A stretch of 64,000 bases of DNA from contig NWBO01000165.1 in assembly GCA_002633275.1 (NCBI GenBank), forward strand, positions 11,015 through 75,014, given 5' to 3'. The notes below the pieces were generated by a model. The model saw only the letters and a list, made by a program, of their open reading frames with translations. It had not been told where the DNA came from and made no database searches. The DNA comes from Bacteroidales bacterium Phil12. Lineage in GTDB: Bacteria; Bacteroidota; Bacteroidia; Bacteroidales; P3. A program made the translations under genes and the position numbers. Positions 29,062-62,829 of the stretch are shown here, one piece after another (position 1 is the first letter of the stretch; every line of letters begins with the position of its first letter).

Positions 29062-29142
29062 AATAATATTAGTGAGTAATAAAATAATGTGAGTAATTGG
29101 CAATTTAATGTGAGTGATTAATAAATTAATCACTCACATTAG
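29062..29142. repeat. 21-bp-period repeat array A (4 units; the last two are head-to-head and form a 36-bp palindrome at 29106-29141)
   Basis: ..TTAGTGAGTAAT.., ..TAATGTGAGTAAT.., TTAATGTGAGTGATTA, then TAATCACTCACATTA, followed by G+T6. It lies 58 nt downstream of the sprA stop. Confidence 0.8.
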
Positions 29143-29199
29143 TTTTTTCTCTGAACACAAAGGAATAATAAATAGTAAAAACAATCTAATTTCCTCTTA

Positions 29200-32100
29200 T
29201 TACAATATGACTTTGATTGAAAAGCCACCTTCTGTCGTGGAGTTAGGATAAGAAGAGGATATATATGGAGTATTGATAGTCATATCGAAAAAGGCTTTCA
29301 ATATTATCTTTTCCGTCAGTGAGTACTCGCCAGAAATATTCAACGTCGTAACCTTTGTTCCTGCTGATATTAGATTAACATCTTGGTCTATCTTTCTAAG
29401 AATTGTCTTGTTGCTGGTTATGGATAAATCGGCTTTCAAAAGAATATCGCTCTTAAATTCTCTCGAATTACCACCGCCCGTTCTCACTGTAACCCTTACG
29501 TCCTTGAAACGATAACCGCCACCGGCAACAATACTGTTTCGCTGAACTTCCGTTAATTGGTTGTTGGAGAATGATAGATTTAGGTTTCTCTCTTTTCGTA
29601 TCTCAAAATTCAATTGGAATGAGTTTTTCAAGTTAATATCAATCTTCAAAAGCGGAGATAACTGCTCTGCAATAGCAACTTGGTCTATGGACTGCTTTGG
29701 TACAAAATTGCTGTTTAATGTATTTCTCACCCACTCCGTTCCATAATCGTACGAAGAAACATCGGGTACGGAAGTATTGGTATAGAATGAAGTAATATTG
29801 TAGTTACATGTGTAGTTGGAAGATAATGTTATGGAGTTCGCCCATTTCTTCACCCATTCCAATTTACCAAGACCTGTCCAAGTAATCCGCCAATTAGGCA
29901 TAGGCATCTTTATGAATGGCGAAAGGCTTTGCGAAGAAGCGTCTTTGTTAAGATATGCCGCCAAAAAGGCCGGTAACAACACCTGCTGTGATGATGAGCC
30001 GTAGCCATCTGGCCAATACTGATTGGAAGCCGTATCCCAAACGTCCATTCCCGAATAATCACTGTTGGCAGCCATATTCTTATCCCTTAAACGATTTGCA
30101 ATAATGTGTCGATTGGACATAAATTTCTCGAAAGTTTCACTTACATTGTTCTTGTCGGTTTTGCTAAACAATGTTCCTATTGCCACAACACTTATAGAGA
30201 ATGTTCCGTTTCTGTATGCGGATAATGGTCCTTGTATTTCGTTATCAATATTGCTGAATTTATAATAAGCAGAATACTGCTCGGTCATCGTTCTTTTGAA
30301 ACTCAAATCAATATTAAAGTCCTTGGCAGGTTCAACTTTGATTTGGGCTGTTATGTTTTCCGAATGCTTTTGTACCAATGCGGAATTGAACATAGTATCT
30401 CTTGTCAGCCAACCATTGGCTATTGCATCAGGCATAATATCTTTTTGCGAGCCAAGTATAAATCCTACACCCGGAGCCCACTTGTCTCTATCCGACATTC
30501 CAAAAAATCTTGCGCGAGGCATAAAGCCCGGAATATATGTTCCGTCATTCAAAGAATATGTTATAGAGGCACTCTTGATAGATGTAAGCAACCTTATGGA
30601 GAAATACAACGCTTCTTTGAAATAGTTCTTTTTCTCAATGGTGTCTGTCGAATCTTTTACGGTGTCTTTCTTTAATTTGATGTTGTCTGCACCTTTAAGT
30701 TGTTTAGGTGCAAACTGAGGCAATTTTTTCTTATCCCTTGCATCGTAAGCCGTTTTGATAAACGGCACTTTATTATACAAAGTAGTGAATGTCATTCCGC
30801 CGGTTGCGTTCAAACGTCTTGAATTTTCAATAACATTACCCAACGATTCTGTTGCATTGGTTGAGCCTTGGAATGTATATTGAGCATTGTAACTACCATT
30901 CAAACGAACCCAGTTAAGTATTGGTATTTTGTTTATCGGCACATTGTAATTCAAACGAACATTCTGTGTGAATTGCATCGCCTTACCAAGTTCCATTATA
31001 CTCTGACGAACAGAATCGCGTTTCTCCTTAGTGTCTATTCTTCCGCGAGGCTCTTCTATCAAAGCGTTCATCGTAGCAGAATATTCCATACGTAAAGAAT
31101 TGGTTATATCGTACTTTACGCCGTATTCCCTATTCCAATAAAAATTCTTATAATAATATGGCTCCATTATCACCAATCCTGCACTTTTACTACGCATCAA
31201 TGTTTCTTGATAGTCGCGAAGCATATCACTCTTGAAGATTATGTTCTTTGGTATATAATTCAAAGTAAAATCTCTCAATATCGCCCATTGTTTTCCCTTA
31301 AATAGAGGTATTTTGCTGAATGGTTTAAGACCTTTTGTTTGAGAATCGTATTGATAATTCAACAGCAATCGGCTTTGAATTTGATTATTGTATTCTATAT
31401 CTGTCGTTCGACGGAAAATCTTGGAATAAGAATAAGACAAAGAGAAGTTCTCCACATCATAGAAATGACGTCGTAACGATGAAGTTCCCATACGCTCTTT
31501 TCTAAAATTCATAATAGAGAAATTTGTTATAGAGGTATAGTCTTGAACCATATGACGAATAGAATCTCTTTCCCTTTCCGTACGATAAGACAACAAATCG
31601 TCTTTCAATAATACATCAGGGTCTAACGGATTATATCTCGGATTGCTAACAGTTCTCGAATAATCGAAATGAAAAGGTATTCTCAGGCCAAAATTGCTCG
31701 GGAAGAATTTGCCAAACTCCAAATTAGTTGCAATATCAAACGAACCGACATTGTCTTGCGAAATAGTAGAAATCTTTTGTTCTATTGTACCAAAGCCGGC
31801 ACTTCTATACGAACCGCTCAAAGCCAAATCGCCCAAATCCGCTAAATTAGCACGCATCGAACCTCTTGCAGCCCAACCTGCTTTCTTATTAAAATCAGTA
31901 AGACGTAATTCATTAACCCAAAGTTCAACACTTTTAGGTAACATATCATCGTCATCGGCTGCGCTTTGCTTCTTAGGATTTCTAACGCCAATCATAAAGA
32001 CTTTTACTTCGGCGATGTTAGGATTTCCCAAAACGGTAATCTTTCTATTGCCTTTATATTCTGTATATAATGTATTATTAGAATAATCCATATTTCCCGA

Positions 32101-36552: not shown

Positions 36553-36558
36553 AAATAG

Positions 36559-37149
36559 TTACATACGACGCAATGCTTCCCTTACGAGATTTTCGACACT
36601 CATCGTATTGTTGTCTTTTAATAGTTTGTCTAACGTTTTCTCGATAATAACTTTATTAAATCCTAATGTCTGCAATGCTAATAACGCTTCGGTACGGTTT
36701 TTATTGTCTGAAACAGATGCAATAGAAGAATCTTTCTCGTCAAATTCCCATTTTTTCAGTTTGTCATGCAAATCCACAATAACCCTTTGCGATGTTTTTG
36801 TACCTATCCCCTTTACTTTGTTGATAGAAGAACTGTCTTCATTTACTATTGCCCTAACCAATTCATCAACACCCAATGAAGACAACATCATTCTTGCCGT
36901 ATTGGCTCCTATCCCACTTACGGTTATCAGATGACGAAACAATTCTCGTTCTCTACTTGTTGCAAAGCCATAAAGAGTTTGAGCATCTTCTCGTACAGAG
37001 AAATGAGTATATATTTTTCCTTCTTTTTTTTCTTTTAATTCAGAGTAAGAAGTAAGCGAAATCTCCACCATATAACCTACCCCACTACAATTGACAACAA
37101 CAAAAGACGGCGTTACTTCTTCAAATTTTCCTTCAAGAAATTCATACAT
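36559..37149 (-). CDS. ruvA: Holliday junction branch migration complex subunit RuvA
   Basis: MYEFLEGKFEEVTPSFVVVNCSGVGYMVEISL..LITVSGIGANTARMMLS..VKGIGTKTSQRVIVDL (two HhH motifs). Confidence 0.95.
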   Translation of the reverse strand: MYEFLEGKFEEVTPSFVVVNCSGVGYMVEISLTSYSELKEKKEGKIYTHFSVREDAQTLYGFATSRERELFRHLITVSGIGANTARMMLSSLGVDELVRAIVNEDSSSINKVKGIGTKTSQRVIVDLHDKLKKWEFDEKDSSIASVSDNKNRTEALLALQTLGFNKVIIEKTLDKLLKDNNTMSVENLVREALRRM

Positions 37150-37183: not shown

Positions 37184-37230
37184 ATATATTATTTCCTTTT
37201 ATTTACCGATATTATATTAATTTTAATAAC

Positions 37231-37275
37231 TAATAAAATAATGTTTAACAAAAATTTATTAGTGTTTAACACTAC
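37231..37275. repeat. 21-bp-period repeat array B (2 units)
   Basis: TAATAAAATAATGTTTAACAAA / AATTTATTAGTGTTTAACACTAC. Confidence 0.6.
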
Positions 37276-41717: not shown

Positions 41718-41750
41718 AAAAATGGAGTGATTTTTTATCGCTCCATTTTT
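41718..41750 (+). terminator. Intrinsic terminator after the AraC gene
   Basis: AAAAATGGAGTGAT-TTTTT-ATCGCTCCATTTTT, followed by CTGTTTT. Confidence 0.65.
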
Positions 41751-41780
41751 CTGTTTTATTTATATCGCTATTCACTTTAT

Positions 41781-41843
41781 CAGTGTTTAACACTATTTTT
41801 CTAATATCACTATTTATTTTTTTAATGTTTAACACTATTTTTA
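41781..41843. repeat. 21-bp-period repeat array C (3 units)
   Basis: CAGTGTTTAACACTATTTTTC / TAATATCACTATTTATTTTTT / TAATGTTTAACACTATTTTTA. Confidence 0.75.
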
Positions 41844-43405: not shown

Positions 43406-44302
43406 ATGAAAAAGATTGCATTGACAGCGATAGTTTTCGCAACGATATTAGCTTCCTGTTCAAGAAACAATAATAAATTTGACGCAACAGGAACTTTTGA
43501 AGCCACGGAAATAATAGTAAGTGCCGAAAACACAGGCAAGATACTTTCCTTAACAATAGAGGAAGGAGATAATGTTCAAAGCGGGCAGCAAATCGGGTTA
43601 ATTGATACCGTACAATTATATTTACAAAAAATGCAATTAATGAAAAATGCACAAAGTATAGACATTAATCGTCCCGATATACTGAAACAAATAGCAAGTC
43701 TGAACAACCAAATCGCACAAGCCAAGAAAGACAAGCAGCGTTTTGAAAACCTTGTTTCGGCTAATGCTGCGAACAAAAAAGATTTGGACGATATAACCTC
43801 AAAAATAAAAATACTTACTTCCCAAAAAGAAGCCATGAACTCAACTTTGGAAAAAAGCAACCGCAGTCTTCAAGCCCAAGCATCAGGTGTGGAAACTCAG
43901 GTTTTGATGATTGATGACAAATTGTCAAAAAGTCGTATTTCCTCTCCAATCAATGGTGTTGTGCTAACCAAATATTCAAACGAAGGCGAGTTTGTAACAA
44001 CGGGCAAACCGATATTCAAAGTTGCGGATATTAACAATATATACCTAAGAGCGTATGTAACCACCGAACAATTGACAAATATAAAAATCGGACAGAAAGT
44101 TAAAGTCTTTGCCTACAAAGGTGCAAAAGATTACAAGGAATATGCAGGCGTTATCACATGGATTGCTTCTCAGGCAGAATTTACTCCAAAGACCATTCAG
44201 ACCAAAGACGAAAGAGAAAACCTTGTATATGCCATTAAAATCTCGGTTAAAAACGACGGATTTATCAAACGCGGTATGTATGGCGAAGTTTCATTCCATT
44301 AA
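43406..44302 (+). CDS. HlyD-family membrane fusion (periplasmic adaptor) protein
   Basis: Lipoprotein-like N-terminus (..ILASCS). ..VSAENTGKILSLTIEEGDNVQSGQQIGLID.., a coiled-coil segment, then ..ISSPINGVVLTK..GKPIFKVAD.. Confidence 0.8.
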   Translation: MKKIALTAIVFATILASCSRNNNKFDATGTFEATEIIVSAENTGKILSLTIEEGDNVQSGQQIGLIDTVQLYLQKMQLMKNAQSIDINRPDILKQIASLNNQIAQAKKDKQRFENLVSANAANKKDLDDITSKIKILTSQKEAMNSTLEKSNRSLQAQASGVETQVLMIDDKLSKSRISSPINGVVLTKYSNEGEFVTTGKPIFKVADINNIYLRAYVTTEQLTNIKIGQKVKVFAYKGAKDYKEYAGVITWIASQAEFTPKTIQTKDERENLVYAIKISVKNDGFIKRGMYGEVSFH

Positions 44303-44398
44303 TCAGTATCAATGATTAATAAATTAATGTGAGTGATTAATAAATTAGTGTTAATGATTAGTAAATTAGTGTGAGTGATTAGCAAATTAAAATCCCCA
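44294..44398. repeat. 21-bp-period repeat array D (4 clear units from 44315 plus a degenerate leading unit overlapping the hlyD-like stop)
   Basis: ATTAATAAATTAATGTGAGTG / ATTAATAAATTAGTGTTAATG / ATTAGTAAATTAGTGTGAGTG / ATTAGCAAATTAAAATCCCCA. Confidence 0.85.
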
Positions 44399-46190: not shown

Positions 46191-46210
46191 AAAAAGGTAT
46201 GTGATTTCAT

Positions 46211-46273
46211 TAAATCAGTGTTAAACACTGATAAATTAGTATTAAACATTAATAAAATAGTGTTAAACACTAA
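46211..46273. repeat. 21-bp-period repeat array E (3 units)
   Basis: TAAATCAGTGTTAAACACTGA / TAAATTAGTATTAAACATTAA / TAAAATAGTGTTAAACACTAA. Confidence 0.85.
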
Positions 46274-47459: not shown

Positions 47460-48572
47460 ATGTTAAAACATTTGATAATAAAAGAATTCAAACAATTGTT
47501 TCGCGGTGGATTTATCCCCAAATTATTAATATTTATGCCAATAGCAATGATAGGCATTCTGCCATTTGCGGCTAATCAAGAAATAAAACATCTGAAAGTA
47601 ACGATTGTCGATAATGACAAAAGTTCTGTAAGTGAAAAACTATGCGAAAAAGTAAGTGCTTCAAAATATTTCACATTGACAGAGGTGGGTTCTTCACACA
47701 GGCAGGCAATTAAAAGTATCGAAAAAGGCGATGTTGATTTGATTGTCGAGATACCTGATGATTTTGAAAAAAATTTAGTCAAAAACGGATTGGGTAAAGT
47801 GCAAATCAGCGTCAATAGTGTAAATGGTATGAAAGGAATGCTTGCCAACAATTATATGAATAGCATAATAAATGAGTATGCAAACGAAATGAAAGAGAAA
47901 TATTCAACGCAGCAGCCGTCATTTCACGCACAAGTATTCAGTATTAAACCTTATTATTTGTTCAACCCTAAATTGGATTACAAAATATTTATGGTTCCCG
48001 CCATTATGGTTATGCTTTTAACTTTGATGTGTGGTTTTTTACCGGCATTAAACATCGTTGGCGAGAAAGAGAAAGGCACTATCGAGCAAATAAATGTAAC
48101 ACCCGTAACCCGTTTCGCCTTTATCCTTTCCAAACTTATCCCTTATTGGATTATAGGTTTTGTGTTGTTTGGTTTTTCAATGTTTTTGGCGTGGTTATTT
48201 TACGGATTAACGCCTGTGGGCAGTGTTTTTACGATGTTTATATTCGTTATTGCGTATATAATTGCCATTTCGGGGTTTGGCCTTGTCATTTCCAATTATG
48301 CAAAAACCATGAGCCAGGCGATGTTCTTGATTTTCTTTTTTATGCTTGTCTTTATATTGATGTCGGGATTATTCACTCCTGTTGCTTCAATGCCACAGTG
48401 GGCGCAATACATTGCAGCAGCAAATCCTTTGAAATATTTTATCGAAGTTATGCGTATGATTTATTTGAAAGGAAGCGGTTTATCGGCTTTAATAACCAAT
48501 TTATTAGCTATAATAACTGTTGCAATAGTGTTAAACACGTGGGCAATCATATCATATAAGAAAACAAACTAA
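47460..48572 (+). CDS. ABC-2 type transporter permease (paralog)
   Basis: Same architecture as the previous permease (..GEKEKGTIEQINVTP..). Confidence 0.85.
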   Translation: MLKHLIIKEFKQLFRGGFIPKLLIFMPIAMIGILPFAANQEIKHLKVTIVDNDKSSVSEKLCEKVSASKYFTLTEVGSSHRQAIKSIEKGDVDLIVEIPDDFEKNLVKNGLGKVQISVNSVNGMKGMLANNYMNSIINEYANEMKEKYSTQQPSFHAQVFSIKPYYLFNPKLDYKIFMVPAIMVMLLTLMCGFLPALNIVGEKEKGTIEQINVTPVTRFAFILSKLIPYWIIGFVLFGFSMFLAWLFYGLTPVGSVFTMFIFVIAYIIAISGFGLVISNYAKTMSQAMFLIFFFMLVFILMSGLFTPVASMPQWAQYIAAANPLKYFIEVMRMIYLKGSGLSALITNLLAIITVAIVLNTWAIISYKKTN

Positions 48573-48596: not shown

Positions 48597-48629
48597 AGCG
48601 GAAGGCTTAATTGTATTAAGTCTTCCGCT
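48597..48629. terminator. Hairpin at the convergent gene junction
   Basis: AGCGGAAGGCTTAAT-TGT-ATTAAGTCTTCCGCT, with 14/15 positions paired. It lies between the stops at 48572 (+) and 48672 (-) and is preceded by an A-rich tract. Confidence 0.6.
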
Positions 48630-48671
48630 GTGATAGATAACAAAAAGTAGTTATCTTATTAAAAGATTCTT

Positions 48672-51089: not shown

Positions 51090-51305
51090 TTTACTGTTGA
51101 TTTAAGTGTTAATATTTTCTTCTGTTATAAATATACTCTATCTATTATTCAAGTTGCAAATTTACAATTTTTTTTTATCATACAAACTTTTTGTCGTAAA
51201 AAATTGCGAATATATGTTTCATTTGTCTGTTTCCCTCACCGTAAAACATATCAATAAATGTTCCAATCCGTCAATAACAAAAACAAAATGCAAAACCCAC
51301 AAATT

Positions 51306-51389
51306 AATCATTGAAACTATTTTACCAATCATTAACACTAATTTACCAATCACTGTAACTATTTCAGTGATGTTAAACACTATTTTAGC
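51306..51389. repeat. 21-bp-period repeat array F (4 units, opposite orientation to array D)
   Basis: AATCATTGAAACTATTTTACC / AATCATTAACACTAATTTACC / AATCACTGTAACTATTTCAGT / GATGTTAAACACTATTTTAGC. Confidence 0.85.
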
Positions 51390-51447
51390 GAAAATACATT
51401 AAGTTAAAACAATCAATTAAAAACAATAAAATTATTGCTTATCGGCT

Positions 51448-52626
51448 TTATTTCAAAAGGCGTTCAAGTTTCTCTGTACTTGTTTGCCAAGAGTAATTTT
51501 CTTTGACAAATTTATTTCCCGACTCTGCAATTTTTTGGCGTAATGTTTCGTCTTGCAGCAAAGACAATATATGTTCGGCAAGTTCGTTTTCATTATCTCC
51601 GACCAATACATCACGTCCATGAATCGACCTTAAAGCAGCATTGGCAAGAGTGGTCGTTATACAAGGCAGGCTCATCGCCATTGCTTCAAGCAACTTGTTT
51701 TGCAGCCCTGTACCTATCTGCATCGGGGCAATAAATATTCGGCTTTGGGCGTAATATGGTTTCATATCATCGACCCAACCCGTTACCGTAACTTTATCGC
51801 TTTGCAAAGCCAAAACTTCTTTTGTCGGATTGCTTCCCGCAAGGCATACAGTGATATTGGGAAAAGTTTTCCAAACCAACGGCATAATTTTCTCAACCAA
51901 GAACTTTGCTGCCACAACATTCGGTTTGTAGGACATATTTCCCGAAAAAATAATATCGAAAACAATATCGGCATTTTTGGGATAGGAAAAATACGATTCC
52001 TCCACCCCATTCTCCACTATTTCAATCTCGTTTCGCCTTGACGAAACCACGCAATCTCTGTCTTGCGAAGTTATTATCGTTGTGAAATCGAATATGGAAA
52101 ACATTTTGTTTTCATATTTCCGCAGCCGTTTGACTTCTTGCATCAATATTGTTTTAACGAAAAACGACGATACATTGGCACGGCGAAGCATATTCATTGA
52201 AAGACAATCTTGAAAGTCCAAGACCATTTTCGGAGTATGGTTGTCGTTGCCTTTGATATACTTGGCATATTGACCGCTTCTGACAAACTGGAAATAAATG
52301 CTGTCGGGGCGTACATAATTATAATAATGCAGGAAATTTTTCTTGGATTTATCGGTCGTAAATAGTGATACCTGCAAAGGCAATCGAGTAAATAAGTTTT
52401 TTAATAAAGACAATAACAAAGGAAACAATCGCAATTTTTCGATATGAACATCTTTACAAAAGGCTTTAACTTGTTTTATATGCTCCGTTTCAACATTCTT
52501 AAAACTCAATGCGAACAAATAAACTTCGTTGCCTTTTGCCAATTGTTTTATTTGGTTAAAGGCTCTTAGTTTATCTCCTTTGTTGAGCGGAAATGGAAAG
52601 CGTGGCAAAAAGACAAGTATTTTCAT
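51448..52626 (-). CDS. Glycosyltransferase, GT4-like (group 1)
   Basis: MKILVFLPRFPFPLNKGDKLR.. and C-terminal ..GTGLQNKLLEAMAMSLPCITT. The ATG at 52626 lies 1 nt from the upstream stop (the track start is 52659). Confidence 0.8.
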   Translation of the reverse strand: MKILVFLPRFPFPLNKGDKLRAFNQIKQLAKGNEVYLFALSFKNVETEHIKQVKAFCKDVHIEKLRLFPLLLSLLKNLFTRLPLQVSLFTTDKSKKNFLHYYNYVRPDSIYFQFVRSGQYAKYIKGNDNHTPKMVLDFQDCLSMNMLRRANVSSFFVKTILMQEVKRLRKYENKMFSIFDFTTIITSQDRDCVVSSRRNEIEIVENGVEESYFSYPKNADIVFDIIFSGNMSYKPNVVAAKFLVEKIMPLVWKTFPNITVCLAGSNPTKEVLALQSDKVTVTGWVDDMKPYYAQSRIFIAPMQIGTGLQNKLLEAMAMSLPCITTTLANAALRSIHGRDVLVGDNENELAEHILSLLQDETLRQKIAESGNKFVKENYSWQTSTEKLERLLK

Positions 52627-52627
52627 A

Positions 52628-53907: not shown

Positions 53908-55383
53908 TTATTCGTCCTTTGGTTTTGTATCGGTGGTCGATGTATCGGCAATTATCTCAGCCGTTTTGCTTTTCTTAATCTTAAACAAAGCGAAAAATTT
54001 TGCAAATAACCTTTGCCAATTTTCTGCCGATAGGACTTTGCTGTCAGTCATCGCCTTTATGGTTAAAAATATTCCGACAGGCAAAAATATTATGGACGAA
54101 AGCCACATAGCAACCAATGGAGAAAGACTGCCTGTCTTTGCAGCGGATTCCCCAATCATTCCGATAACGTAATATATTGCAAAAGCAATTATGGACACTA
54201 CGACAGGCATACCCAATCCCCCTTTTCGGATTATAGACCCGAGCGGAGCGCCAATGAAGAACAATATAACGCAGGCAATGGACAAAGTAAATTTTCGATA
54301 GAACTCAATCCAATGACGTGTGATGTATGCTTCATCAAAAGCACGTATTTCCATATTGCTGCCATATTCGTTAAACATTCCGCTCAACAAATCCCTTGCA
54401 TAGTTATCCGTTATTTTTTGTTTCGTACTATCCAATAATGAATAGTCTTTATAAAAATCGCTTTTAACGCTGGAAGTGTTTTTTATTGAGGTGTCGGCGT
54501 GATAACGCTTCATTATAAATTCCGAATAATAGGCTTGGTTTTTCGCAAAAGCGTCTTGCAAAGAATCCACGCGAGTATAAAGTTTTGTAACACCCAATAC
54601 CTTGTAAGAATCGGAGTATTTGTCTTTGTCGCTTTGCTGCATAGCAAAATCACTTACGTCGAAACGCAAAATTTGTTGCTTAAACTTAATTCTTGTCAAG
54701 GGACGCTTTCTGTAATTATCGCCTCCGACATCTTCCGAAAACACTTCGCCGTCGTAAAGTTTGAAAATCATCGTTTGATTATTCTCGGCAGAATACATAT
54801 AACCGCTGTCGGCCTTAATCATTTCGACGTTACCCATATCTTTGTTGTGATTGTAAATCAAAACGCCGTACATCTTGTTGGTTCGTTTATCTTTCTTGTC
54901 GATACGAATAACATAAGAAGATATTTGTGTATAAAACTCGTTCGGGCGGATATTGATTGCGGGTTTTTTGTCTTTGATATCTGCCGCCAATTGTTTGGTT
55001 CGCAAATCCGCAGCAGGTATCACCCAACCGGAAAAGTAAAAAGCCACACACGAAAAAACTACGGCAAGAATTATCAGCGGACGGAATATTCTCCAAAGTG
55101 ATAAGCCTGCACTTTTCATAGCTACCAATTCGTATTTCTCGCCAAAATTACCCATAGTCATTATGGATGCAAGCAGTATGCTTAACGGCAACGCCATAGG
55201 TACCATAGTCGCAGAAGCATAAGCAAATAACTCCAAAAGAGTTGTCCATTCCAAACCTTTACCTATCAATGTTTCTATTTTTCTCCATAGAAAGGTCATA
55301 ACCAATACAAACATCGATATTGAAAAAGTCAGCAACAGCGGCCCCAAAAAGGATTTTATTATAAGTTTATCTAATTTTTTCAC
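53908..55383 (-). CDS. LptF/LptG-family (YjgP/YjgQ) permease
   Basis: MKKLDKLIIKSFLGPLLLTFSISMFVLVM.. Three N-terminal TM segments, a large periplasmic loop and three C-terminal TM segments. Confidence 0.8.
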   Translation of the reverse strand: MKKLDKLIIKSFLGPLLLTFSISMFVLVMTFLWRKIETLIGKGLEWTTLLELFAYASATMVPMALPLSILLASIMTMGNFGEKYELVAMKSAGLSLWRIFRPLIILAVVFSCVAFYFSGWVIPAADLRTKQLAADIKDKKPAINIRPNEFYTQISSYVIRIDKKDKRTNKMYGVLIYNHNKDMGNVEMIKADSGYMYSAENNQTMIFKLYDGEVFSEDVGGDNYRKRPLTRIKFKQQILRFDVSDFAMQQSDKDKYSDSYKVLGVTKLYTRVDSLQDAFAKNQAYYSEFIMKRYHADTSIKNTSSVKSDFYKDYSLLDSTKQKITDNYARDLLSGMFNEYGSNMEIRAFDEAYITRHWIEFYRKFTLSIACVILFFIGAPLGSIIRKGGLGMPVVVSIIAFAIYYVIGMIGESAAKTGSLSPLVAMWLSSIIFLPVGIFLTIKAMTDSKVLSAENWQRLFAKFFALFKIKKSKTAEIIADTSTTDTKPKDE

Positions 55384-55403
55384 AACAAATATCTTTCAGA
55401 CCG

Positions 55404-55411
55404 CAAAGTTA
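55404..55411 (-). promoter_or_regulatory. -7 box TAACTTTG for the lptF/G-like gene
   Basis: The reverse complement of CAAAGTTA matches TAnnTTTG. It lies 21 nt upstream of the ATG at 55383. Confidence 0.45.
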
Positions 55412-55424
55412 CAAATATTATTTG

Positions 55425-55432
55425 TATTTTTG
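55425..55432 (+). promoter_or_regulatory. -7 box TATTTTTG for the DPP III gene (divergent promoter pair)
   Basis: TAnnTTTG followed by C, 75 nt upstream of the ATG at 55507. Confidence 0.4.
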
Positions 55433-55506
55433 CAAAAACATAAGGTAATAACTTGTTGCAAGCATAAAGGAACATCGCAAAAGTTATTCATAAATTCAGA
55501 AACGAT

Positions 55507-57459
55507 ATGACGTATTTCGCAGAAAAAAATATCAATCAAAGTAATCAAAACAACGAAAACTTCAAATTTATTATCGATGAGTTTGCCGATTGCAAAGTTA
55601 TGAGGTATCAAGTTCCTAATTGGGATACTTTGTCTTTGAATCAAAAGAAATATATTTATTGTTTATCGCAAGCCGCTCTTTGGGGCAGAGATATTTATTT
55701 CAGTCAAAATTATAAAAATAATATCATCATTCGCAAAGCCCTTGAAAACATATTACGTTCTTTCGACGGGGATAAAGACAATGACGAATGGATAGAATTT
55801 GAGATTTATGCCAAACGCTTCTTTTTCTCCAACGGCATACATCATCATTATGGCGAAAAGAAATTTTTTCCTAAGTGCAGCAGAGAATATTTTGCTTCTT
55901 TATTGAAAGGCGAAAACACAGAATTTATTCTTGACGAGATTTACAATCCAAACATCGCCCCTATTCGTAGAGACACCAGCACACAAAACGATATTGTTAA
56001 AAGCAGTGCCGTCAATTTCTACCAAGATGTTTCTCGCAAAGAAGTTGAAGAATACTACAATAATATCGATAACGATTTGCTTCACCCTGTTTCTTTGGGC
56101 TTAAACTCTAAACTTGTAAAAGAAAACGGAGAAATAAAAGAGTATGTTGCCAAAATAAATGGTATGTACTCGAAATACATAGAAAAAATAGTCTATTGGT
56201 TAAAAGAATCTCTCAATTTCGCAGAAAACGAAAAGCAAAAAGCATATACGAATAAACTTATTGAGTTTTACATTACGGGAGATTTGAAAATTTGGGACGA
56301 ATATAATATCCTTTGGTCGCAAGACAGCGAATCGGTTTGTGATTACATCAACGGATTTATTGAAACCTACAACGACCCGTTAGGAATGAAAGGCACATGG
56401 GAGGCTGTTGTTGATTTCAAAGATATTGAAGCAACCAAGCGAACCCAAATACTTTGTTCCAATGCTCAATGGTTTGAAGACCATTCGCCAATAAACCCGC
56501 AGTATCGTAAAAAGCAAGTTACGGGTGTCAGTGCAAAGGTTATCAATGTCGCAATGCTTTCGGGCGATTGCTATCCGACCTCTCCCATCGGCATCAATCT
56601 GCCGAACGCCGATTGGATTCGCAAGGATTATGGAAGTAAGTCCGTAACTCTTGCCAATATATCCGATGCTTACTTCCAAGCGTCATTGGAAAATCCTAAG
56701 AGTGCGTTAAACGAGTTCTCGTTTTCCGAGCATGAAATAGAGCGAGCAATGAAATACGGACAGTTGTCGGATAATCTTCATACGGATATGCACGAATGTT
56801 TGGGACACGGCTCGGGACAGTTATTGGAATCCACTCCCGCAAATGCCTTAAAAGAATATTCATCTACATTGGAAGAAGCACGTGCAGACCTGTTCGCTTT
56901 ATACTATTTAATGGACGAAAAAATGATTGAACTAAATCTTATCGATTCATTAGAAGTTGGCAAAGCACAATATGATGCTTATGTTCGCAACGGTCTTTTG
57001 GTTCAATTGGCACGTATTCCTCTTGGAGAGAATATAACAGAAGCTCATATGCAGAACCGCAAACTGATTTGCGAATATGCTCTTCAAAACTCCGATTGCA
57101 TTGAAAAAATCATCAAAGACAATAAAACCTATTTCGTTATCAAAGACTACGACAAACTAAGGAGTGTTTTCGGCGAGTTGTTGTATCAAATACAAGAGAT
57201 TAAATCGACAGGCGATTACGAAAAGGGTAAATATTTGGTTGAGACCTATGGCGTGAAAATCGATTCCGAAATACACAAGGAAGTTATATCAAGATACGCC
57301 GAACTTAATATCAAACCTTACGGAGGATTTATCAATCCCGATTTGCAAGAGGTTAAAAATGCCGACGGCGAGGTTATAGATATAAACATTTCTTATCCGC
57401 AATCTTTTATAGCCCAACAATTGAAATACGGCACCGAATATTCTTTCGATAATGAATAA
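55507..57459 (+). CDS. Peptidase family M49 (dipeptidyl-peptidase III-like) zinc metallopeptidase
   Basis: Contains HECLGHGSG (HExxGH) and LEEARADLF (EExRAD), the two DPP III zinc-binding signatures. Confidence 0.8.
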   Translation: MTYFAEKNINQSNQNNENFKFIIDEFADCKVMRYQVPNWDTLSLNQKKYIYCLSQAALWGRDIYFSQNYKNNIIIRKALENILRSFDGDKDNDEWIEFEIYAKRFFFSNGIHHHYGEKKFFPKCSREYFASLLKGENTEFILDEIYNPNIAPIRRDTSTQNDIVKSSAVNFYQDVSRKEVEEYYNNIDNDLLHPVSLGLNSKLVKENGEIKEYVAKINGMYSKYIEKIVYWLKESLNFAENEKQKAYTNKLIEFYITGDLKIWDEYNILWSQDSESVCDYINGFIETYNDPLGMKGTWEAVVDFKDIEATKRTQILCSNAQWFEDHSPINPQYRKKQVTGVSAKVINVAMLSGDCYPTSPIGINLPNADWIRKDYGSKSVTLANISDAYFQASLENPKSALNEFSFSEHEIERAMKYGQLSDNLHTDMHECLGHGSGQLLESTPANALKEYSSTLEEARADLFALYYLMDEKMIELNLIDSLEVGKAQYDAYVRNGLLVQLARIPLGENITEAHMQNRKLICEYALQNSDCIEKIIKDNKTYFVIKDYDKLRSVFGELLYQIQEIKSTGDYEKGKYLVETYGVKIDSEIHKEVISRYAELNIKPYGGFINPDLQEVKNADGEVIDINISYPQSFIAQQLKYGTEYSFDNE

Positions 57460-57826
57460 CACCTCAACATACAATATCGGTAAGCAGGGCGAAGACCTTG
57501 CTACCGAGTTTTTAGAAAGACAAGGATATAGGATATTGGAGCGTAATTTTGTCCATAATAAAAAAGAAATAGACATCATTGCACAAGACAAAAACACTAT
57601 TGTATTTGTCGAAGTCAAGGAACGCTCCACCGATGTTTTCGGAGAACCCTTTGAGGCTGTCAATCTACAAAAACAAAAACGCATCATTAATGTTGCCGAT
57701 AGTTATATAAGAAAGCACAATATAGATTTGGAATCCCGTTTTGATATTATATCTATCGTTAAATCACCGAATGAAGAAACGAAAATTCTTCATATCAAGG
57801 ACGCTTTTACTCCTATAATGTTTTAA
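57452..57826 (+). CDS. yraN: YraN-family (UPF0102) endonuclease-like protein
   Basis: GKQGEDLATEFLERQGYRILERNF..KEIDIIAQDKNTIVFVEVKERS. It overlaps the upstream gene by 8 nt. Confidence 0.85.
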   Translation: MNNTSTYNIGKQGEDLATEFLERQGYRILERNFVHNKKEIDIIAQDKNTIVFVEVKERSTDVFGEPFEAVNLQKQKRIINVADSYIRKHNIDLESRFDIISIVKSPNEETKILHIKDAFTPIMF

Positions 57827-57939
57827 TTAATCCTACTAATCGTTTTTTCAAGAGAAGAAAACAATTTTCTTTTTTCTGTTAGGAAAAAAGCCATTTTGCG
57901 TTTTGAGTAAATACTTGCTGAAAACAAACAACTTTCCTT

Positions 57940-57959
57940 AGAAGACTGTGTCTTCTTTT
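57940..57959 (+). terminator. Small intrinsic terminator AGAAGAC-TGT-GTCTTCT-TTT
   Basis: 7-bp stem, 3-nt loop and a T tract, downstream of yraN. Confidence 0.45.
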
Positions 57960-58006
57960 CGAAAGTCAAAAGAAATATTATGATTAAATAGTGCTTTTCT
58001 AAGGAG

Positions 58007-58080
58007 TAGCGAGGACGAGAATTGAACTCGTGACCTCCGGGTTATGAATCCGACGCTCTAACCAACTGAGCTACCTCGCC
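58007..58080 (-). tRNA. tRNA with anticodon CAT (Met; could be Ile2 if lysidinylated)
   Basis: Hand-folded cloverleaf: GGCGAGG-TA-GCTC-AGTTGGTTA-GAGC-G-TCGGA-TTCATAA-CCCGG-AGGTC-ACGAG-TTCAATT-CTCGT-CCTCGCT-A. 74 nt, with no encoded CCA. It has a G1-U72 pair and an A31-C39 mismatch. Confidence 0.85.
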
Positions 58081-58184
58081 GTTTTGAGTTTGCAAAATTA
58101 CAAATTTATATATTACCACCAAATTTTTACTCAATATTTTTTCAAACTAAGATATTAATCAACTAATAATCAATGAAATATTTT

Positions 58185-58331
58185 TACGACTAATAATCAC
58201 TCTTTTCTATCATAATATAGTTTTTTCAGTGTTTAACACTAAAAAAATAATCACTCACACTAATTTATTAATCACTCACATCAGTAAAATAATATGAGTG
58301 ATTATTTTTTTAATCGGTAAAACTATTTTTT
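58185..58331. repeat. 21-bp-period repeat array G (7 units)
   Basis: ..CAGTGTTTAACACTAAAAAAA / TAATCACTCACACTAATTTAT / TAATCACTCACATCAGTAAAA / TAATATGAGTGATTATTTTTT / TAATCGGTAAAACTATTTTTT. It lies between the tRNA and the stop of the SLT gene. Confidence 0.8.
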
Positions 58332-58400
58332 TGGTTACTTATATCAAAAAATCATCTTCAATAAAACGCCTTTTTATATGTAAAAATGCTGTTTTCTTTC

Positions 58401-59399
58401 CTACATCGATTTCACGAAATCGTAAGGTTCATCTATTTTATCCACAAGATAGTTCCAGTCGTACGAATTTTTCTTAAATATTTTCAATGTATATTTTTTT
58501 CTTTCCTTATTGGTAAGTTTTTTTGCCTGCAATTCAGGATTTGCCATCTTGAAATATTTATATTCCGTGCCTATCTGCTTTGCAAAAGCATAGAAATCGT
58601 TTATCGTTGTATCTATCACAATAGAATCATACTCCAATGGCTGGTGGCAATCTATATTACGGATATAAAAACCGTAGTCTTGCGGATTTTGCATTATGAT
58701 TTTATAGGCTATGATACGATAAACATAACGTGCGGTCTCGTTATTCAAAGCAAGATTCCAATAATTATTTACTTGTTGTTCCTTGATACGAGCCTTAATT
58801 CCGCCCTCGCCACAATTGTATGCCGCACAAGCCAACGGCCAATTACCGAGACGTGCATAACTACCTTTCAAATATTTGCAAGCAGCAATGGCGGATTTCT
58901 CCACATTATATCTCTCATCGTATTCACTATTGACTACCAGTCCGTATTCCCTTGCAGTTGCAGGCATAAACTGCCAAAAACCCTCAGCCTTAGCCGGAGA
59001 AACAGCATTATTCAAAGCACTCTCGGCAACAGCCAAATATTTCAAATCTTCGGGGACTTTTTGGGATTTTAATACTTTTTCTATTTGCGGAAAATAACGA
59101 TAAGCACGTTTTAGAATGATAAACGTCGATGCGTGTTGGTATGTAATATACGATAATTCCCTATCCAAAGCCTCACGAACGAAAGTATTGTTCAAAGGAA
59201 CCTTTTCGCCACAAAAACTAACTTCCTTAGGCATCGGAGCAGCAAAATTATGAAAATGTTCTTTTAATATTTCTCTGTATTGTTCGTCATCGCTTTTCTT
59301 GGTTGTGGCAAACATAAATATTTGTGAGATAACAGCCACACTGCTTAACACTATCGCAATGATAGATATGGTAATGGTGGAATTTTTCTTTTTATTCAT
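58401..59399 (-). CDS. Lytic transglycosylase (SLT domain, MltD-like)
   Basis: ..YLAVAESALNNAVSPAKAEGFWQFMPATAREYGL..AAYNCGEGG.. The start was moved to MNKKKNSTITISIIAIVL (N-terminal anchor); the track start is 59468. Confidence 0.8.
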   Translation of the reverse strand: MNKKKNSTITISIIAIVLSSVAVISQIFMFATTKKSDDEQYREILKEHFHNFAAPMPKEVSFCGEKVPLNNTFVREALDRELSYITYQHASTFIILKRAYRYFPQIEKVLKSQKVPEDLKYLAVAESALNNAVSPAKAEGFWQFMPATAREYGLVVNSEYDERYNVEKSAIAACKYLKGSYARLGNWPLACAAYNCGEGGIKARIKEQQVNNYWNLALNNETARYVYRIIAYKIIMQNPQDYGFYIRNIDCHQPLEYDSIVIDTTINDFYAFAKQIGTEYKYFKMANPELQAKKLTNKERKKYTLKIFKKNSYDWNYLVDKIDEPYDFVKSM

Positions 59400-59526
59400 C
59401 AGATTTTTTGTTTTTTTGAGTTTGCAAAGGTAAATAAAAACATCGGATATTCGCCCTCTAAAAGACAAATATCCGATACCAATAAAGGTTTTTCAATAAT
59501 CAAAGCATTCTTTTCAAAAGAAAAAA

Positions 59527-60003
59527 TTATCGTTTAATGGTTTTGACTGCTGTCGGCGTCCAAATCTCCAAAAATTCTTTGGCAAGTTTTTCACTATAAC
59601 CCTTACCCTCTTCCAAATATACAGAATTTTGGGTGTGAATTCTCTTACCATTTTCGTCAAGAATGACAAAAACCGGAAAACCAAAGCGTGTAGGATTGTC
59701 TAACATCGCCATAGCCTTTTCGTTCTTGTTTTTCTTGGAATAATTAACGTGGATATAAACGTAATTACTATCGATAACGTTTTTTATAGCCTCATTGGTT
59801 TGTGCCAATTCGGCAAAACGCAAACACCACGGGCACCAATTTCCTCCGACTTGCACAAGAACATATTTTTGGTCGGCTTTGGCTTGTTTTACAGCAGAAT
59901 TGATTTGCTCCACTGCGTCAATATCTTCGTTATACGGCTTATTTTGAGAAAAACAACACAAAGCAACAAACACAAAAGTAGAAAATAAAATCAGTTTTTT
60001 CAT
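59527..60003 (-). CDS. Thioredoxin-fold protein (secreted, CxxC)
   Basis: Signal peptide MKKLILFSTFVFVALCCFSQ and ..VQVGGNWCPWCLRF.. Confidence 0.75.
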   Translation of the reverse strand: MKKLILFSTFVFVALCCFSQNKPYNEDIDAVEQINSAVKQAKADQKYVLVQVGGNWCPWCLRFAELAQTNEAIKNVIDSNYVYIHVNYSKKNKNEKAMAMLDNPTRFGFPVFVILDENGKRIHTQNSVYLEEGKGYSEKLAKEFLEIWTPTAVKTIKR

Positions 60004-60078
60004 ATCATTATTTTGTTTTAATTATTCGTAGTAACGCAAAAAACAATAAAAATATTTCCTTGTGGTATTAATTTTGTA

Positions 60079-60086
60079 TAACTTTG
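60079..60086 (+). promoter_or_regulatory. -7 box TAACTTTG
   Basis: TAnnTTTG followed by C, 28 nt upstream of the ATG at 60115. Confidence 0.45.
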
Positions 60087-60114
60087 CAACATTAATCAAA
60101 AACACGTAACAAAA

Positions 60115-60828
60115 ATGAAAAACATTAATTTGAAACTTGATTTGGGTGTAATCGCTTTGGCGTTAATAATTATGGGATTTTTTATCTATAAAGGTTTGAA
60201 ATCTTTTTCCGACAACACAAGAACTGTTAGCGTAAGAGGTCTGTCCGAGAGAATTGTCGATGTGGATTATGCCAATTTGACGATAAACTATGCTGTCGGA
60301 GGAAACGATATGCAACAAATCCTTAAAGAGATTGAACAGAAAAACGCAAAAGTGAAACAATTCGCAATCTCAAAAGGTTTGAAAGAAAACGAAATAACAA
60401 TAAACGTTCCGAGTATCACCGACAAACAAAATCAACAATATGGCGGCTACGATGCCAATCTACTTTACAGATACTATGCGACAGTTGCCATTACATTTAT
60501 CAGTAACAATGTAAAAAGCGTAAGAGATTTGGAAGAAAACCAATTTGATTTGTTCAAAGAGGGTATTAATCTTATAACGCAATATTCATACAACCGCGAA
60601 AACGAATACACTTACAGTTTTACCAAACTCAACGATATAAAACCCGATATGATTAAAGAAAGTATCGAAAACGCAAAGAAAGCCGCTAACGAATTTGCCC
60701 AAAGCAGTAAATCCAAAATCAAAGATATTAAATCCGCTTCACAAGGTCAGTTTTCCATTACTCCGACCGACAATCCTTTGAAAATGAAAGTCCGTGTAGT
60801 TTCTACTATCGAGTATTTCATTAAATAA
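60115..60828 (+). CDS. SIMPL (DUF541)-like periplasmic protein
   Basis: N-terminal anchor, ..RTVSVRGLSERIVDVDYANLTINY.., and C-terminal ..ASQGQFSITP.. This recalls SIMPL-domain proteins. The assignment is from memory only. Confidence 0.55.
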   Translation: MKNINLKLDLGVIALALIIMGFFIYKGLKSFSDNTRTVSVRGLSERIVDVDYANLTINYAVGGNDMQQILKEIEQKNAKVKQFAISKGLKENEITINVPSITDKQNQQYGGYDANLLYRYYATVAITFISNNVKSVRDLEENQFDLFKEGINLITQYSYNRENEYTYSFTKLNDIKPDMIKESIENAKKAANEFAQSSKSKIKDIKSASQGQFSITPTDNPLKMKVRVVSTIEYFIK

Positions 60829-60854
60829 ATCCGCAATTTAATTATTCGCAAAAG

Positions 60855-60938
60855 CGATATGTAACACTGAAAAATTAGTGTTAAACACTAAAAAAATAAT
60901 ATTAAACATTAGTAAATTAGTGTTAAACATCAAAAAAA
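60855..60938. repeat. 21-bp-period repeat array H (4 units)
   Basis: CGATATGTAACACTGAAAAAT / TAGTGTTAAACACTAAAAAAA / TAATATTAAACATTAGTAAAT / TAGTGTTAAACATCAAAAAAA. Confidence 0.85.
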
Positions 60939-61061
60939 TAAATACGCCTGTCAATTGATTTTTGGCAGGCTTTTTAATTTTCTTTTGCATCATTATCATA
61001 ATGCAATTATATCTCTTTTGAGTTTAAGGTGTTTATACTTTTGTCAAAAGAAATATTTTTG

Positions 61062-61069
61062 TAACTTTG
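61062..61069 (+). promoter_or_regulatory. -7 box TAACTTTG
   Basis: TAnnTTTG followed by C, 20 nt upstream of the ATG at 61090. Confidence 0.45.
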
Positions 61070-61089
61070 CAACACAAAAACAAAAGGAT

Positions 61090-61761
61090 ATGGAAGATAT
61101 ACTTAATTTTCTTAGGAGTGTTCAACGCAATAACAACAGAGAATGGTTCAACGCAAACAAAGATTTATACCTTAACGCCAAACAAAAATTCGACAACATC
61201 GCCCAAGAAATTATTTACGGTGTCGGAGAATTTGATGCCTCTTGCCGCAACCTTACTCTTAAAGACTGCACTTATCGTTTTTATCGCGACACTCGTTTTT
61301 CCAAAGACAAAACCCCTTACAAGACACATTTCGGCGTTTATGTCTGTCCGAAAGGAAAGAAATCCATGTGGGCAGGTTATTATTTCCATATCGAACCGCA
61401 GGGTGCTAACTATCTCGGCACTCATATGCTTGGCTGCGGTTCTTATATGCCCGATAACTCTATGCTTAGATGTATTCGTGAAGAGATTTTCTCCAATGGA
61501 GAAAATTATTTGAGTTGCATAAAAAAGGCTAAGGACTTTTATTTGTGCAAAGAGCCTGCGCTGAAAAAACTTCCCAAAGAAATTCCAACCAGTAAGTATG
61601 ACGAATACATAAAATTGAAGACTCAGTTGTTGGAAATGGATATTGACGAAAATTTTCTTATGGATAAAAACCTTGTTAAGAATGTTGTCAAAGAGTTTAA
61701 GTCTTGTTATGATTTCGTTTCCTTTATAAACAACGCCATTTCCTTTGTAGGCAATTATTAA
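61090..61761 (+). CDS. DUF2461 (TIGR02453) family protein
   Basis: MEDILNFLRSVQRNNNREWFNANKDLY..CTYRFYRDTRFSKDKTPYKTHFG.. The start was moved from the track's 60955. Confidence 0.75.
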   Translation: MEDILNFLRSVQRNNNREWFNANKDLYLNAKQKFDNIAQEIIYGVGEFDASCRNLTLKDCTYRFYRDTRFSKDKTPYKTHFGVYVCPKGKKSMWAGYYFHIEPQGANYLGTHMLGCGSYMPDNSMLRCIREEIFSNGENYLSCIKKAKDFYLCKEPALKKLPKEIPTSKYDEYIKLKTQLLEMDIDENFLMDKNLVKNVVKEFKSCYDFVSFINNAISFVGNY

Positions 61762-61771
61762 TACCAACACT

Positions 61772-62776
61772 ATGGGCATACAGGCAATAATCCCGAAACT
61801 GAAAACACAAGAAACAATAGTGTTTCATACTTCTTTGTTTTCCTCAGAAGACAAACTGATTTTAGCACCTATGCAAAATCTGACAAGTCTGTTTTTCAGA
61901 AAAACATTTTCATACCTGTTCCCTCAGAATTTTGATTACGCCGTTTCGCCATTTATTTCCGTTTCGTCCAATGCTCAAAATCCAAATTCAATACAATACA
62001 AAGATATTTCCCCTACCCAAAACCGTAATCTTATGCCACTTGTTCCGCAAATCTTAGGTAATAAGGCGGAGGAGATTGTGGAATGTGCTAAAATATTGGA
62101 GCGTTTTGGTTACAGGGAAGTTAATCTAAATATGGGCTGCCCTAAAAAAGATATTGTATCTCGCGGAAGGGGTTCGGGATTGTTAAAAGACAAAGATGCA
62201 GTTAAACGTATTTTTGATGCGGTGTTATCAAACACGACATTGCAACTAAGTATAAAGGTGCGTTTGGGTATAAAGGATGGTTCGGAATTGGAAACATTGC
62301 TTCCGATATTAAATGATTATCCGCTCAAATCCGTTACCATTCACCCACGAACACAACAACAGCAATATTTGGGAGAAGTGAATTTGTCGGACTTCGCTTT
62401 CTTTGCAACCAAACTAAAACATACAATAATATATAACGGAGATATTTTTTCGACCAATGATTTCAAAAGATTGAAAACTCAATTCCCGTTTATAAAACAT
62501 TGGATGATTGGACGAGGAGTACTGCAAAACCCTTTTCTTGCAGCCGAAATTCGCGGCATATCTTACGACAAAAAACAGTTGCTTCCGGTTTATATTGACT
62601 TATTGCAAGAGAATTTCATCGCATCACTATATCGCTACAACGAAACAACAATCCTTAATAAGATGAAAGAATTTACCAAGTACTTATCAATCGGTTTTTC
62701 TTTCGATGCCACCGAACTTTTGCGTATGGACAGTCTTGACGAATTTAATAAGGCTTTACACAAAATTAGTGTTTAA
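61772..62776 (+). CDS. tRNA-dihydrouridine synthase family protein
   Basis: ..LAPMQNLTS..VNLNMGCPKKDIVSRGRGSGLLKD..SIKVRLG..TIHPRT.. are Dus-like TIM-barrel motifs. Confidence 0.75.
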   Translation: MGIQAIIPKLKTQETIVFHTSLFSSEDKLILAPMQNLTSLFFRKTFSYLFPQNFDYAVSPFISVSSNAQNPNSIQYKDISPTQNRNLMPLVPQILGNKAEEIVECAKILERFGYREVNLNMGCPKKDIVSRGRGSGLLKDKDAVKRIFDAVLSNTTLQLSIKVRLGIKDGSELETLLPILNDYPLKSVTIHPRTQQQQYLGEVNLSDFAFFATKLKHTIIYNGDIFSTNDFKRLKTQFPFIKHWMIGRGVLQNPFLAAEIRGISYDKKQLLPVYIDLLQENFIASLYRYNETTILNKMKEFTKYLSIGFSFDATELLRMDSLDEFNKALHKISV

Positions 62777-62829
62777 CACTGTTTCGCTAATGTTTAACAT
62801 TATTTTTTCAGTGTTAAACATTATTTTTA
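62766..62829. repeat. 21-bp-period repeat array I (3 units); the first unit contains the dus-like stop codon
   Basis: TTAGTGTTTAACACTGTTTCGC / TAATGTTTAACATTATTTTTT / CAGTGTTAAACATTATTTTTA. The stop TAA lies at 62774-62776. Confidence 0.8.

Follow-up and report, generated by a model that had tools for sequence, protein, structure and literature searches.

A dispersed family of 21-bp-module repeats in an uncultured rumen Bacteroidales species

What are the short, strictly periodic repeats that recur between the genes of a rumen member of the Bacteroidales? The question is raised by a 64,000-nucleotide stretch of Bacteroidales bacterium Phil12 (assembly GCA_002633275.1, contig NWBO01000165.1, positions 11,015 to 75,014 of the forward strand), referred to here as the window. 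A preliminary description of this DNA pointed out nine arrays of tandem 21-bp units, named here A to I. It considered them as a cooperative protein-binding array, with REP/BIME-like elements or a non-autonomous mobile repeat as alternatives. The arrays belong to an undescribed family of 21-bp-module repeats in one uncultured rumen Bacteroidales species. They are probably a species-specific, high-copy, non-coding interspersed repeat of a selfish or non-autonomous nature, of the general kind represented by REP/REPIN-BIME, BOX, Rickettsia palindromic elements (RPE) and BrickBuilt, and it is thus the alternative reading that the evidence favours.

Modules, arrays and abundance

The family was traced with a two-unit pattern scanned against one genome per GTDB species (185,579 species genomes). 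At least 78 loci matched, and 47 of the matches listed lie in a single metagenome-assembled genome (MAG), 'uncultured Bacteroidales bacterium RUG093'. One RUG093 locus is 95.9% identical to window positions 54150-62149 over 8 kb, and RUG093 therefore represents the species of the window. The remaining 46 RUG093 loci (~363 kb; the locus duplicating the window was left out) were pooled with the window into a set of ~410 kb. This set contains 81 arrays and 347 units, confirming that further copies exist elsewhere in the genome. Array density is roughly one per 4-15 kb. The RUG093 loci were selected for containing an array, which biases such densities; the unbiased figure is that of the window, nine arrays in 38 kb. 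Species-wide copy number is estimated in the hundreds.

The unit is directional. An orientation-aware matrix reads AA(A/T)-TA(G/A)T(G/A)TT(A/T)AACA(T/C)(T/C)A-(G/A)(T/C)A, and each 21-bp module comprises a 15-bp near-palindromic core, TARTRTTWAAYAYTA, and an A-rich 6-bp spacer. Variation between units is nearly all purine-to-purine or pyrimidine-to-pyrimidine. Two to eight units make up an array, giving an element of ~60-150 bp. Units run chiefly head to tail, and about one-third of arrays end with at least one inverted unit (>...<). A typical array opens with a degenerate head unit, often TAATAAGTGATATTR, continues with three core units and closes with a palindromic tail. A three-unit body with position-specific variants is commonest (32 of 81 arrays), and the last unit is a perfect palindrome between AA(A/T)T and A(A/T)TT flanks. 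When arrays are aligned by BLAST with 120-bp flanks, similarity between copies stops within ~6 nt of the array edge. The spacing of strong cores is 21 bp in 66 cases and 42 bp in 17 (83 of 83), with no other distance within 130 bp.

All nine arrays of the window are present in this strict register. Period 21 is called by Tandem Repeats Finder at seven of the nine sites: A at 29060-29130, C at 41784-41842, D at 44313-44390, E at 46211-46273, F at 51306-51364, G at 58236-58293 and H at 60863-60939. Arrays B and I go unreported by the program; each nevertheless has cores at an exact 21-bp distance (37239/37260 and 62767/62788/62809). The units become directly visible once the sequence is laid out in a 21-bp register. 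Two core types can be counted in the window. The palindromic core TAGTGTTWAACACTA, with up to three mismatches, has 23 matches against 2.3 expected, a number reached in none of 100 shuffles (~10-fold enrichment). The asymmetric core TAATGTGAGTGATTA has 11 matches against 3.7 expected, again equalled in none of 100 shuffles (~3-fold). The first 26 kb of the window, its conjugative-transposon part, has no core match with up to two mismatches, in agreement with the preliminary claim that this DNA is free of arrays. Core matches of that quality lie at 29-63 kb, that at 48526 being singled out as an exception: a lone palindromic-core-like unit, TAGTGTTAAACACGT (two mismatches, window 48526-48540), within the final 50 nt of an ABC-2 permease gene. 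Chance alone may account for this match, or it may be a solitary intragenic unit.

The family matched nothing described elsewhere, and the earlier remark that it could not be recognised holds. A BLAST search of the consensus element against plasmids and phages gave no match. An Rfam 15 scan of the whole window returned a tRNA-Met as the only match at or above gathering score, with none for the arrays. No candidate came from a protein-database search with the array-encoded peptide, and the motif is described in no paper found. PARCELs are 75-bp coding repeats unrelated to the 21-bp family (PMC2996958). The two-unit pattern also drew several lookalikes, which were rejected. Tandem heptamer repeats (TAATGTT / TAATACT / CAATACT) that mimic a 21-bp period account for the matches in Muribaculaceae, Prevotella and Sangeribacter; they lie on MAG contigs (L010, L015, L018, L020, L022, L041, L052, L061 and L071), some of them at contig ends. 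In Nostocales (L028, L057, L062 and L073) the pattern hit long tandem arrays in which another 21-bp unit, GAGTGTTTAATACTCGCACAG, is repeated more than 10 times. Other matches outside RUG093 are chance pairs, and a scan of viral contigs gave three unrelated AT-rich repeats.

Copies between genes, within genes and among relatives

The preliminary description took the arrays to occupy gene 3' flanks. This is accurate for the window, where a stop codon lies 0-122 nt upstream of every array (nine of nine) and is itself overlapped by arrays D and I. It does not describe the family: arrays also occupy divergent gaps and lie in frame within genes, and the 3'-flank-only pattern is a small-sample effect of the window. 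For the pooled set, gene calls were crude (greedy long open reading frames, ORFs, of at least 110 amino acids) and gaps of at least 50 bp were counted. Arrays occupy 30 of 100 co-directional gaps (30%), 14 of 34 divergent gaps (41%) and 11 of 25 convergent gaps (44%). At least nine of the 14 divergent cases, inspected by eye, are genuinely promoter-only gaps. The median gap is 228 bp long with an array and 116 bp without, a difference of about one array length. Equal occurrence in coding regions, which would have told against an intergenic family, was not seen: coding sequence makes up 85% of the DNA, yet 134 core matches with up to two mismatches lie outside ORFs against 24 inside, a density ~32-fold higher.

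Position and orientation within gaps are biased. In co-directional gaps the array is nearer the upstream stop in 24 of 33 cases and nearer the next start in nine (p = 0.014); the median distance from the stop is 46 nt, and 13 of the 33 lie within 30 nt. Of the arrays in these gaps, 26 have the A-rich strand as sense strand, against nine with the opposite orientation (p = 0.006). Array orientation tracks gene direction (p = 0.016) and has no link with local GC skew, taken as a proxy for replication direction (p = 0.64).

Some five of the 81 arrays are intragenic. In-frame arrays occur in RUG093 in murE, aroC, coaX, a metallo-hydrolase gene and an uncharacterised gene. A 21-bp unit spans exactly seven codons and one frame is open, which makes survival in frame possible. 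The murE array is a clean loop insertion of four in-frame units (LKSIDTA-KLITHIS-KIILNTD-EIVLNTN). The loop has 0-10 residues in 14 orthologues of other species, and the RUG093 protein has 530 residues against a typical 484-489. A second strain retains the insertion with one substitution. At this loop the murE of a 69% relative (L175, 10001-11533) reads AATAATAAGCATATAATATCGAAAAATATTGTAAAAACG, DNA similar to a head unit with a single decayed core unit, which may represent an older shared insertion or a hotspot. The aroC array (contig L027, gene 3781-4848, array 4284-4340) reads KLVLNIS-EIVLNTD-KIMLNTN with head and tail units. Its ~35 encoded residues fill the segment preceding a conserved GDS-x-GG-like motif and align with native residues with no net length gain, the protein being no longer than its orthologues; judged from this alignment, the array appears to have taken the place of native sequence and not simply to have been inserted. 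The uncharacterised protein has three asymmetric-core units (ITHTNSA). Repeat-derived frames also give RUG093 ORFs false N-terminal extensions, for example VLNINKIILNTNK... preceding a lipoprotein signal peptide.

Copies were added to the genome in this lineage. In a relative of 70% identity (L168), the syntenic SIMPL-DUF2461-Dus block has empty sites where arrays H and I stand in the window, with only the gene's terminator present. Contigs of relatives were reached via proteins 64-71% identical to the DUF2461 protein and MurE of the window, and no family units were found in their 58-80 kb. Metagenome relatives of the DUF2461 gene have best identities of 47-56%, and those loci carry no arrays. 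Within the species, contigs with an identical RuvA all come from metagenome assemblies. The array B gap is identical in three of three flank-spanning contigs and the array C gap in one of one. The array A gap is identical in three of four; contig L004 has the same length there and a non-identical sequence. A clade-wide 21-bp periodicity was considered and rejected, no more than one weak array of period 21 per 58 kb being present in relatives, and one per 540 kb in distant Bacteroidota. A relative of 69% protein identity (L170) has its own dispersed element of 21-bp period, with unit GAAATCATTAANAAAA, at 2764-2847 and 8206-8290. These two loci have the common head AAAATGTCTG, and the 11-mer AATCATTAACA is common to the L170 element and array F of the window.

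The nine arrays of the window

The genes of the window are of Bacteroidota type, including SprA, a T9SS sorting domain, DUF5723, RuvA and LptF/G. The arrays among them vary in size, core type and orientation. They contain nearer 40 units than the approximately 35 of the preliminary description, and three extend beyond the limits first assigned: C starts at 41760, E at 46195, and H runs to 60953. Orientation was also partly revised. Arrays A and C are opposed to the upstream gene, as had been stated, and a strand-aware unit model adds B.

Array A (29062-29142, + strand) has four units (>>><) of the asymmetric-core type, TAATGTGAGTGATTA, and lies between the stop of sprA (29200, - strand) and the start of a Mur-ligase gene (28853). 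Its final two units are inverted to form a 16-17-bp hairpin, with an RNA fold of -20.1 kcal/mol (z = -5.4). Array B (37218-37275, + strand), of the palindromic-core type, is the weakest of the nine: its cores keep the 21-bp distance claimed for them, and it amounts to two to three units. It is located between the stop of a DUF5723 gene (37397, - strand) and the start of ruvA (37149). Array C (41760-41843, - strand) comprises four units (<<<<) in which the palindromic core alternates with a head-type core, TAATATCACTATTTA; it stands just past a GC-rich terminator-like hairpin (41718-41750) downstream of an AraC-family gene.

Arrays D and E adjoin transporter genes. Array D (44301-44398, + strand), with four to five units (>>>>>) of the asymmetric-core type, begins at the stop codon of an HlyD-family gene (44300-44302) within an efflux/ABC operon. 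Array E (46195-46273, + strand) has a degenerate head unit and three palindromic-core units (>>>>); the stop of an ABC ATPase gene is 4-21 nt upstream and a permease start 59 nt downstream. Array F (51306-51389, - strand) consists of four divergent units of the AATCATTAACACTA type. Its + strand is T-rich, so relative to the - strand glycosyltransferase gene ending at 51448 it has the sense orientation. The 98-amino-acid ORF overlying array F (51106-51402, + strand) matches no Pfam family and is probably spurious, the product of an open frame through the repeats.

In array G (58185-58346, mixed strand), six to seven units differ in orientation and core type; the array lies between a tRNA-Met (58006-58080, - strand) and the stop of an SLT-domain gene (58401). 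Compared with RUG093, its seven-unit layout is indel-free and its well-formed central units are 100% conserved; its RNA fold is -36.3 kcal/mol (z = -6.4). Array H (60855-60953, + strand; five units, >>>>>), which has the same unit number in RUG093, lies between the stop of a SIMPL gene (60828) and the GC-rich terminator of the same gene (60946-60975). It is therefore probably transcribed. Array I (62746-62829, - strand; four units, ><<<) lies in a convergent gap and encodes the final four codons and stop of the Dus gene (KISV*), a C-terminus shorter by two to five residues than in three relatives. It folds as a single long hairpin (RNA fold -23 kcal/mol, z = -6.4).

Two further features of the window were noted. 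Conventional GC-rich hairpin and T-run terminators stand near or adjoin arrays, namely the two already described beside H and C and a third at 48597-48632; since the genome has such terminators, the organism is not dependent on arrays for termination. Three distinct tandem repeats of 22-bp period (26083-26146, 26214-26265 and 26322-26362; for example CTCAAAAAAGCCCCTTTTTTAC, 2.9 copies) occupy a 520-bp gap between an ArsP/HMA permease gene and a DUF2027/Smr gene, and their sequence is unrelated to the 21-bp family.

Competing readings and known systems

The selfish-repeat reading is preferred because the family is species-restricted, has a very high copy number, represents added DNA in every gap type and is tolerated in protein loops and gene ends. 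Copies persist where harm is small: in any intergenic gap, preferentially near the upstream stop and away from the next promoter, and also at the extreme 3' ends of genes, where they serve as stop-codon donors (arrays D and I), and in protein surface loops. Transcription would filter orientation, with an A-rich sense strand yielding no hairpin-plus-U-tract structures. The same orientation may give a tolerable peptide, K-I/L-V/I-L-N-T-N/D. The phased, curved array could be recognised by a protein, either a mobilising enzyme or a nucleoid protein. This last step is proposed because the two-turn register is invariant and the A-tracts are phased at 10.5 bp.

Several observations weigh against a selfish repeat. 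Copies differ by 2-16% (84-98% identity) yet align almost without gaps, and all 83 spacings are exactly 21 or 42 bp. A decaying selfish element should lose register in its A-run spacers, and some constraint or homogenisation on phase is therefore indicated. The usual marks of movement were also sought. Alignment of at least 70 array boundaries showed no duplicated flanks, and no long terminal inverted repeats were seen at array ends. Among the few strains compared there was no presence/absence polymorphism, and spanning contigs from few strains gave no change of unit number in A, B, C, G, H or the murE insertion. A phmmer search with E. coli RayT against 1,026 ORFs (434 kb, part of the genome) had a best E-value of 1.1. 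Finally, the aroC copy shows no net length gain and is therefore not explained by simple insertion.

The retained register lends some weight to a second reading, in which the arrays have a function for the host. A dimeric DNA-binding protein, nucleoid-associated or a domesticated transposase, would bind them cooperatively and organise or insulate the chromosome; such a role, compatible with a selfish origin, is possible and rather unlikely. The geometry would suit cooperative binding, with three to five sites on one helical face of DNA predicted to be curved, and the preliminary proposal of a protein-binding array has that much in its favour. The 21-bp spacing is kept despite slippage-prone A-run spacers. 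The half-sites of a unit vary independently, without compensatory change, which is easier to reconcile with recognition of duplex DNA than with selection for a hairpin, and the exchange of purine for purine and pyrimidine for pyrimidine preserves the pattern of flexible steps. A-tract centres are ~10.5 bp apart in every unit. Predicted bend per 84 bp has a median of 68 degrees in arrays, against 34 in other intergenic DNA and 27 in coding DNA (p = 3e-23), figures from a wedge model that are indicative only. Against the proposal stands the occurrence of the family in one species only among those sampled: its absence from close relatives would be unusual for a nucleoid system. The murE, aroC and coaX copies and the overwritten gene ends look like collateral damage. 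Hundreds of copies count against a regulatory version, similar occupancy with and without promoters argues against transcriptional regulation, and no candidate binding protein can be named. There is a minor chance that register, phased A-tracts and half-sites reflect a dedicated protein bound along one face of curved DNA, the arrays then being more than debris. Such a protein would be either a new kind of mobilising enzyme, one that builds or moves modules of exactly 21 nt and needs neither RAYT nor terminal inverted repeats nor target duplications, or a nucleoid protein of the host that has co-opted these platforms in their hundreds.

A dedicated role in RNA 3' ends is the weakest of these three readings and is improbable. 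The arrays would act as co-transcribed terminators or as hairpins protecting mRNA 3' ends, in the manner of REP/BIME in enterobacterial operons. Their closeness to stop codons, in all nine window arrays and in the co-directional gaps at large, agrees with this, as do the correlation of orientation with transcription direction and the probable transcription of array H. RNA folding is also good (z-scores from -3.4 to -6.4 in arrays A, C, G, H and I), and the paired arms of a three-unit array come from units 1 and 3, with unit 2 at the tip. Arrays A, G and I, a minority, resemble bidirectional terminators. However, 41% of divergent gaps hold arrays, and the favoured orientation (26 against nine) places A-runs rather than U-runs past the hairpins, unlike an intrinsic terminator. 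Covariation is lacking between the half-sites of a unit: Watson-Crick pairs are as frequent as expected under independence, and mutual information does not exceed 0.07 bits. The hint of pairing between units 1 and 3 is marginal (214 against 209.9 +/- 2.3, p = 0.06), and G-U and A-C combinations are equally frequent, giving no strand bias. GC-rich terminators follow genes in seven of 55 cases with arrays and 16 of 115 without (p = 1.0), and are thus neither replaced nor accompanied by arrays. The lack of an Rfam match also tells against the idea.

Locally generated minisatellites, each produced in place when replication slipped on a common short palindrome (a terminator stem, for instance), would explain head-to-tail units of exact period and are nonetheless highly implausible: units are no more alike within an array (identity 0.745) than between arrays (0.748-0.771), which excludes growth by recent local duplication, loci have a common higher-order layout of head, three units and tail, copy number is the same between strains at 96% identity, and whole multi-unit blocks lie inside conserved genes.

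The selfish-repeat reading invites comparison with several known systems. The likeness to REP/REPIN-BIME, BOX, RPE and BrickBuilt is one of mode, and each has defining tests that the family fails. Two other classes can be set aside. The spacers are 6-nt A/T runs and arrays have two to eight units, whereas CRISPR repeats are 24-48 bp long and alternate with unique spacers of comparable size. Plasmid iterons and transposon-end binding sites such as the TnsB sites of Tn7 occur once or twice per replicon or element, beside the gene for the binding protein. The arrays share with them three to five direct repeats of ~21-22 bp, helical phase, A+T richness and a geometry suited to cooperative binding of one protein. 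They differ in occupying hundreds of dispersed loci with no associated gene; at nine arrays in 38 kb and 81 in ~410 kb, adjoining unrelated housekeeping genes, they do not have the distribution of an iteron origin, where a single array adjoins a rep gene, DnaA boxes or an AT-rich unwinding region.

REP, REPIN and BIME elements of Proteobacteria are mobilised by RAYT tyrosine transposases. Like the present family, they are short imperfect palindromes with hundreds of extragenic copies, often just past genes or within operons, and in regular clusters. The 15-bp near-palindromic core in a 21-bp unit, the 347 units in ~410 kb and the extragenic enrichment all correspond, and the three-unit module folds like a REPIN into two arms and a tip. 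The differences are head-to-tail directional units in place of alternating ones, a period of only 21 bp and a Bacteroidales host, and the search of the sampled DNA yielded no RAYT. Neither a GTAG nor a CGTC tag can be read in the unit consensus or across unit junctions. Occasional copies inside genes, reported for REP elements (PMC3733652), are a further trait in common.

The family resembles BOX in its modular head, variable tandem internal units and tail, with ~100 or more intergenic copies in one species and no transposase of its own. BOX of Streptococcus pneumoniae is organized as boxA-boxB(n)-boxC, with modules of 45-59 bp that are not individually palindromic. Its sequence is unrelated, and copies of the 21-bp family also lie in frame within genes. 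This last property is shared with RPE, which are single elements of 100-150 bp with a CGTC tag. Both are palindromic selfish repeats that survive in frame within conserved protein genes as well as between genes, as the MurE copy without counterpart in 14 orthologues illustrates; the present elements are arrays of 21-bp units, with about five of 81 intragenic. Rickettsia palindromic elements are cited alongside REP (PMC3733652).

Repeats of this species matter beyond their classification. They have remodelled genes, adding seven-residue repeats to MurE, AroC and CoaX and supplying new stop codons. They account for the fragmentation of MAG assemblies and for spurious ORF calls, that over array F among them, and provide a species-specific marker for the rumen lineage of RUG093. 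A complete genome of the species could bring to light a novel way of dispersing repeats or a novel system of DNA-protein recognition. If the dedicated-protein reading were true, the arrays would be a Bacteroidales counterpart of the BIME-gyrase/IHF sites, with a grammar of their own.

The nearest comparison by host is BrickBuilt of Porphyromonas gingivalis, a minisatellite-MITE with a tandem 23-nt unit and 19 copies per genome (PMC4596501). Its copies have 1-23 units, between leaders (up to 285 nt) and tails (up to 318 nt) that bear terminal inverted repeats (PMC4596501). Both families are species-specific in a Bacteroidales host, always or mostly intergenic, and made of imperfect tandem units without unique spacers. 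In the 21-bp family, copies resemble one another no further than the array edge, their alignments contain no conserved leader or tail and only a one-unit degenerate head, arrays have two to eight units, and copies are estimated in the hundreds. Repeats of the REP, BOX and RPE type are well studied in Proteobacteria and Firmicutes and scarcely in Bacteroidota, where BrickBuilt is the main example; the family described here is far more abundant than BrickBuilt, with a simple and very regular grammar.

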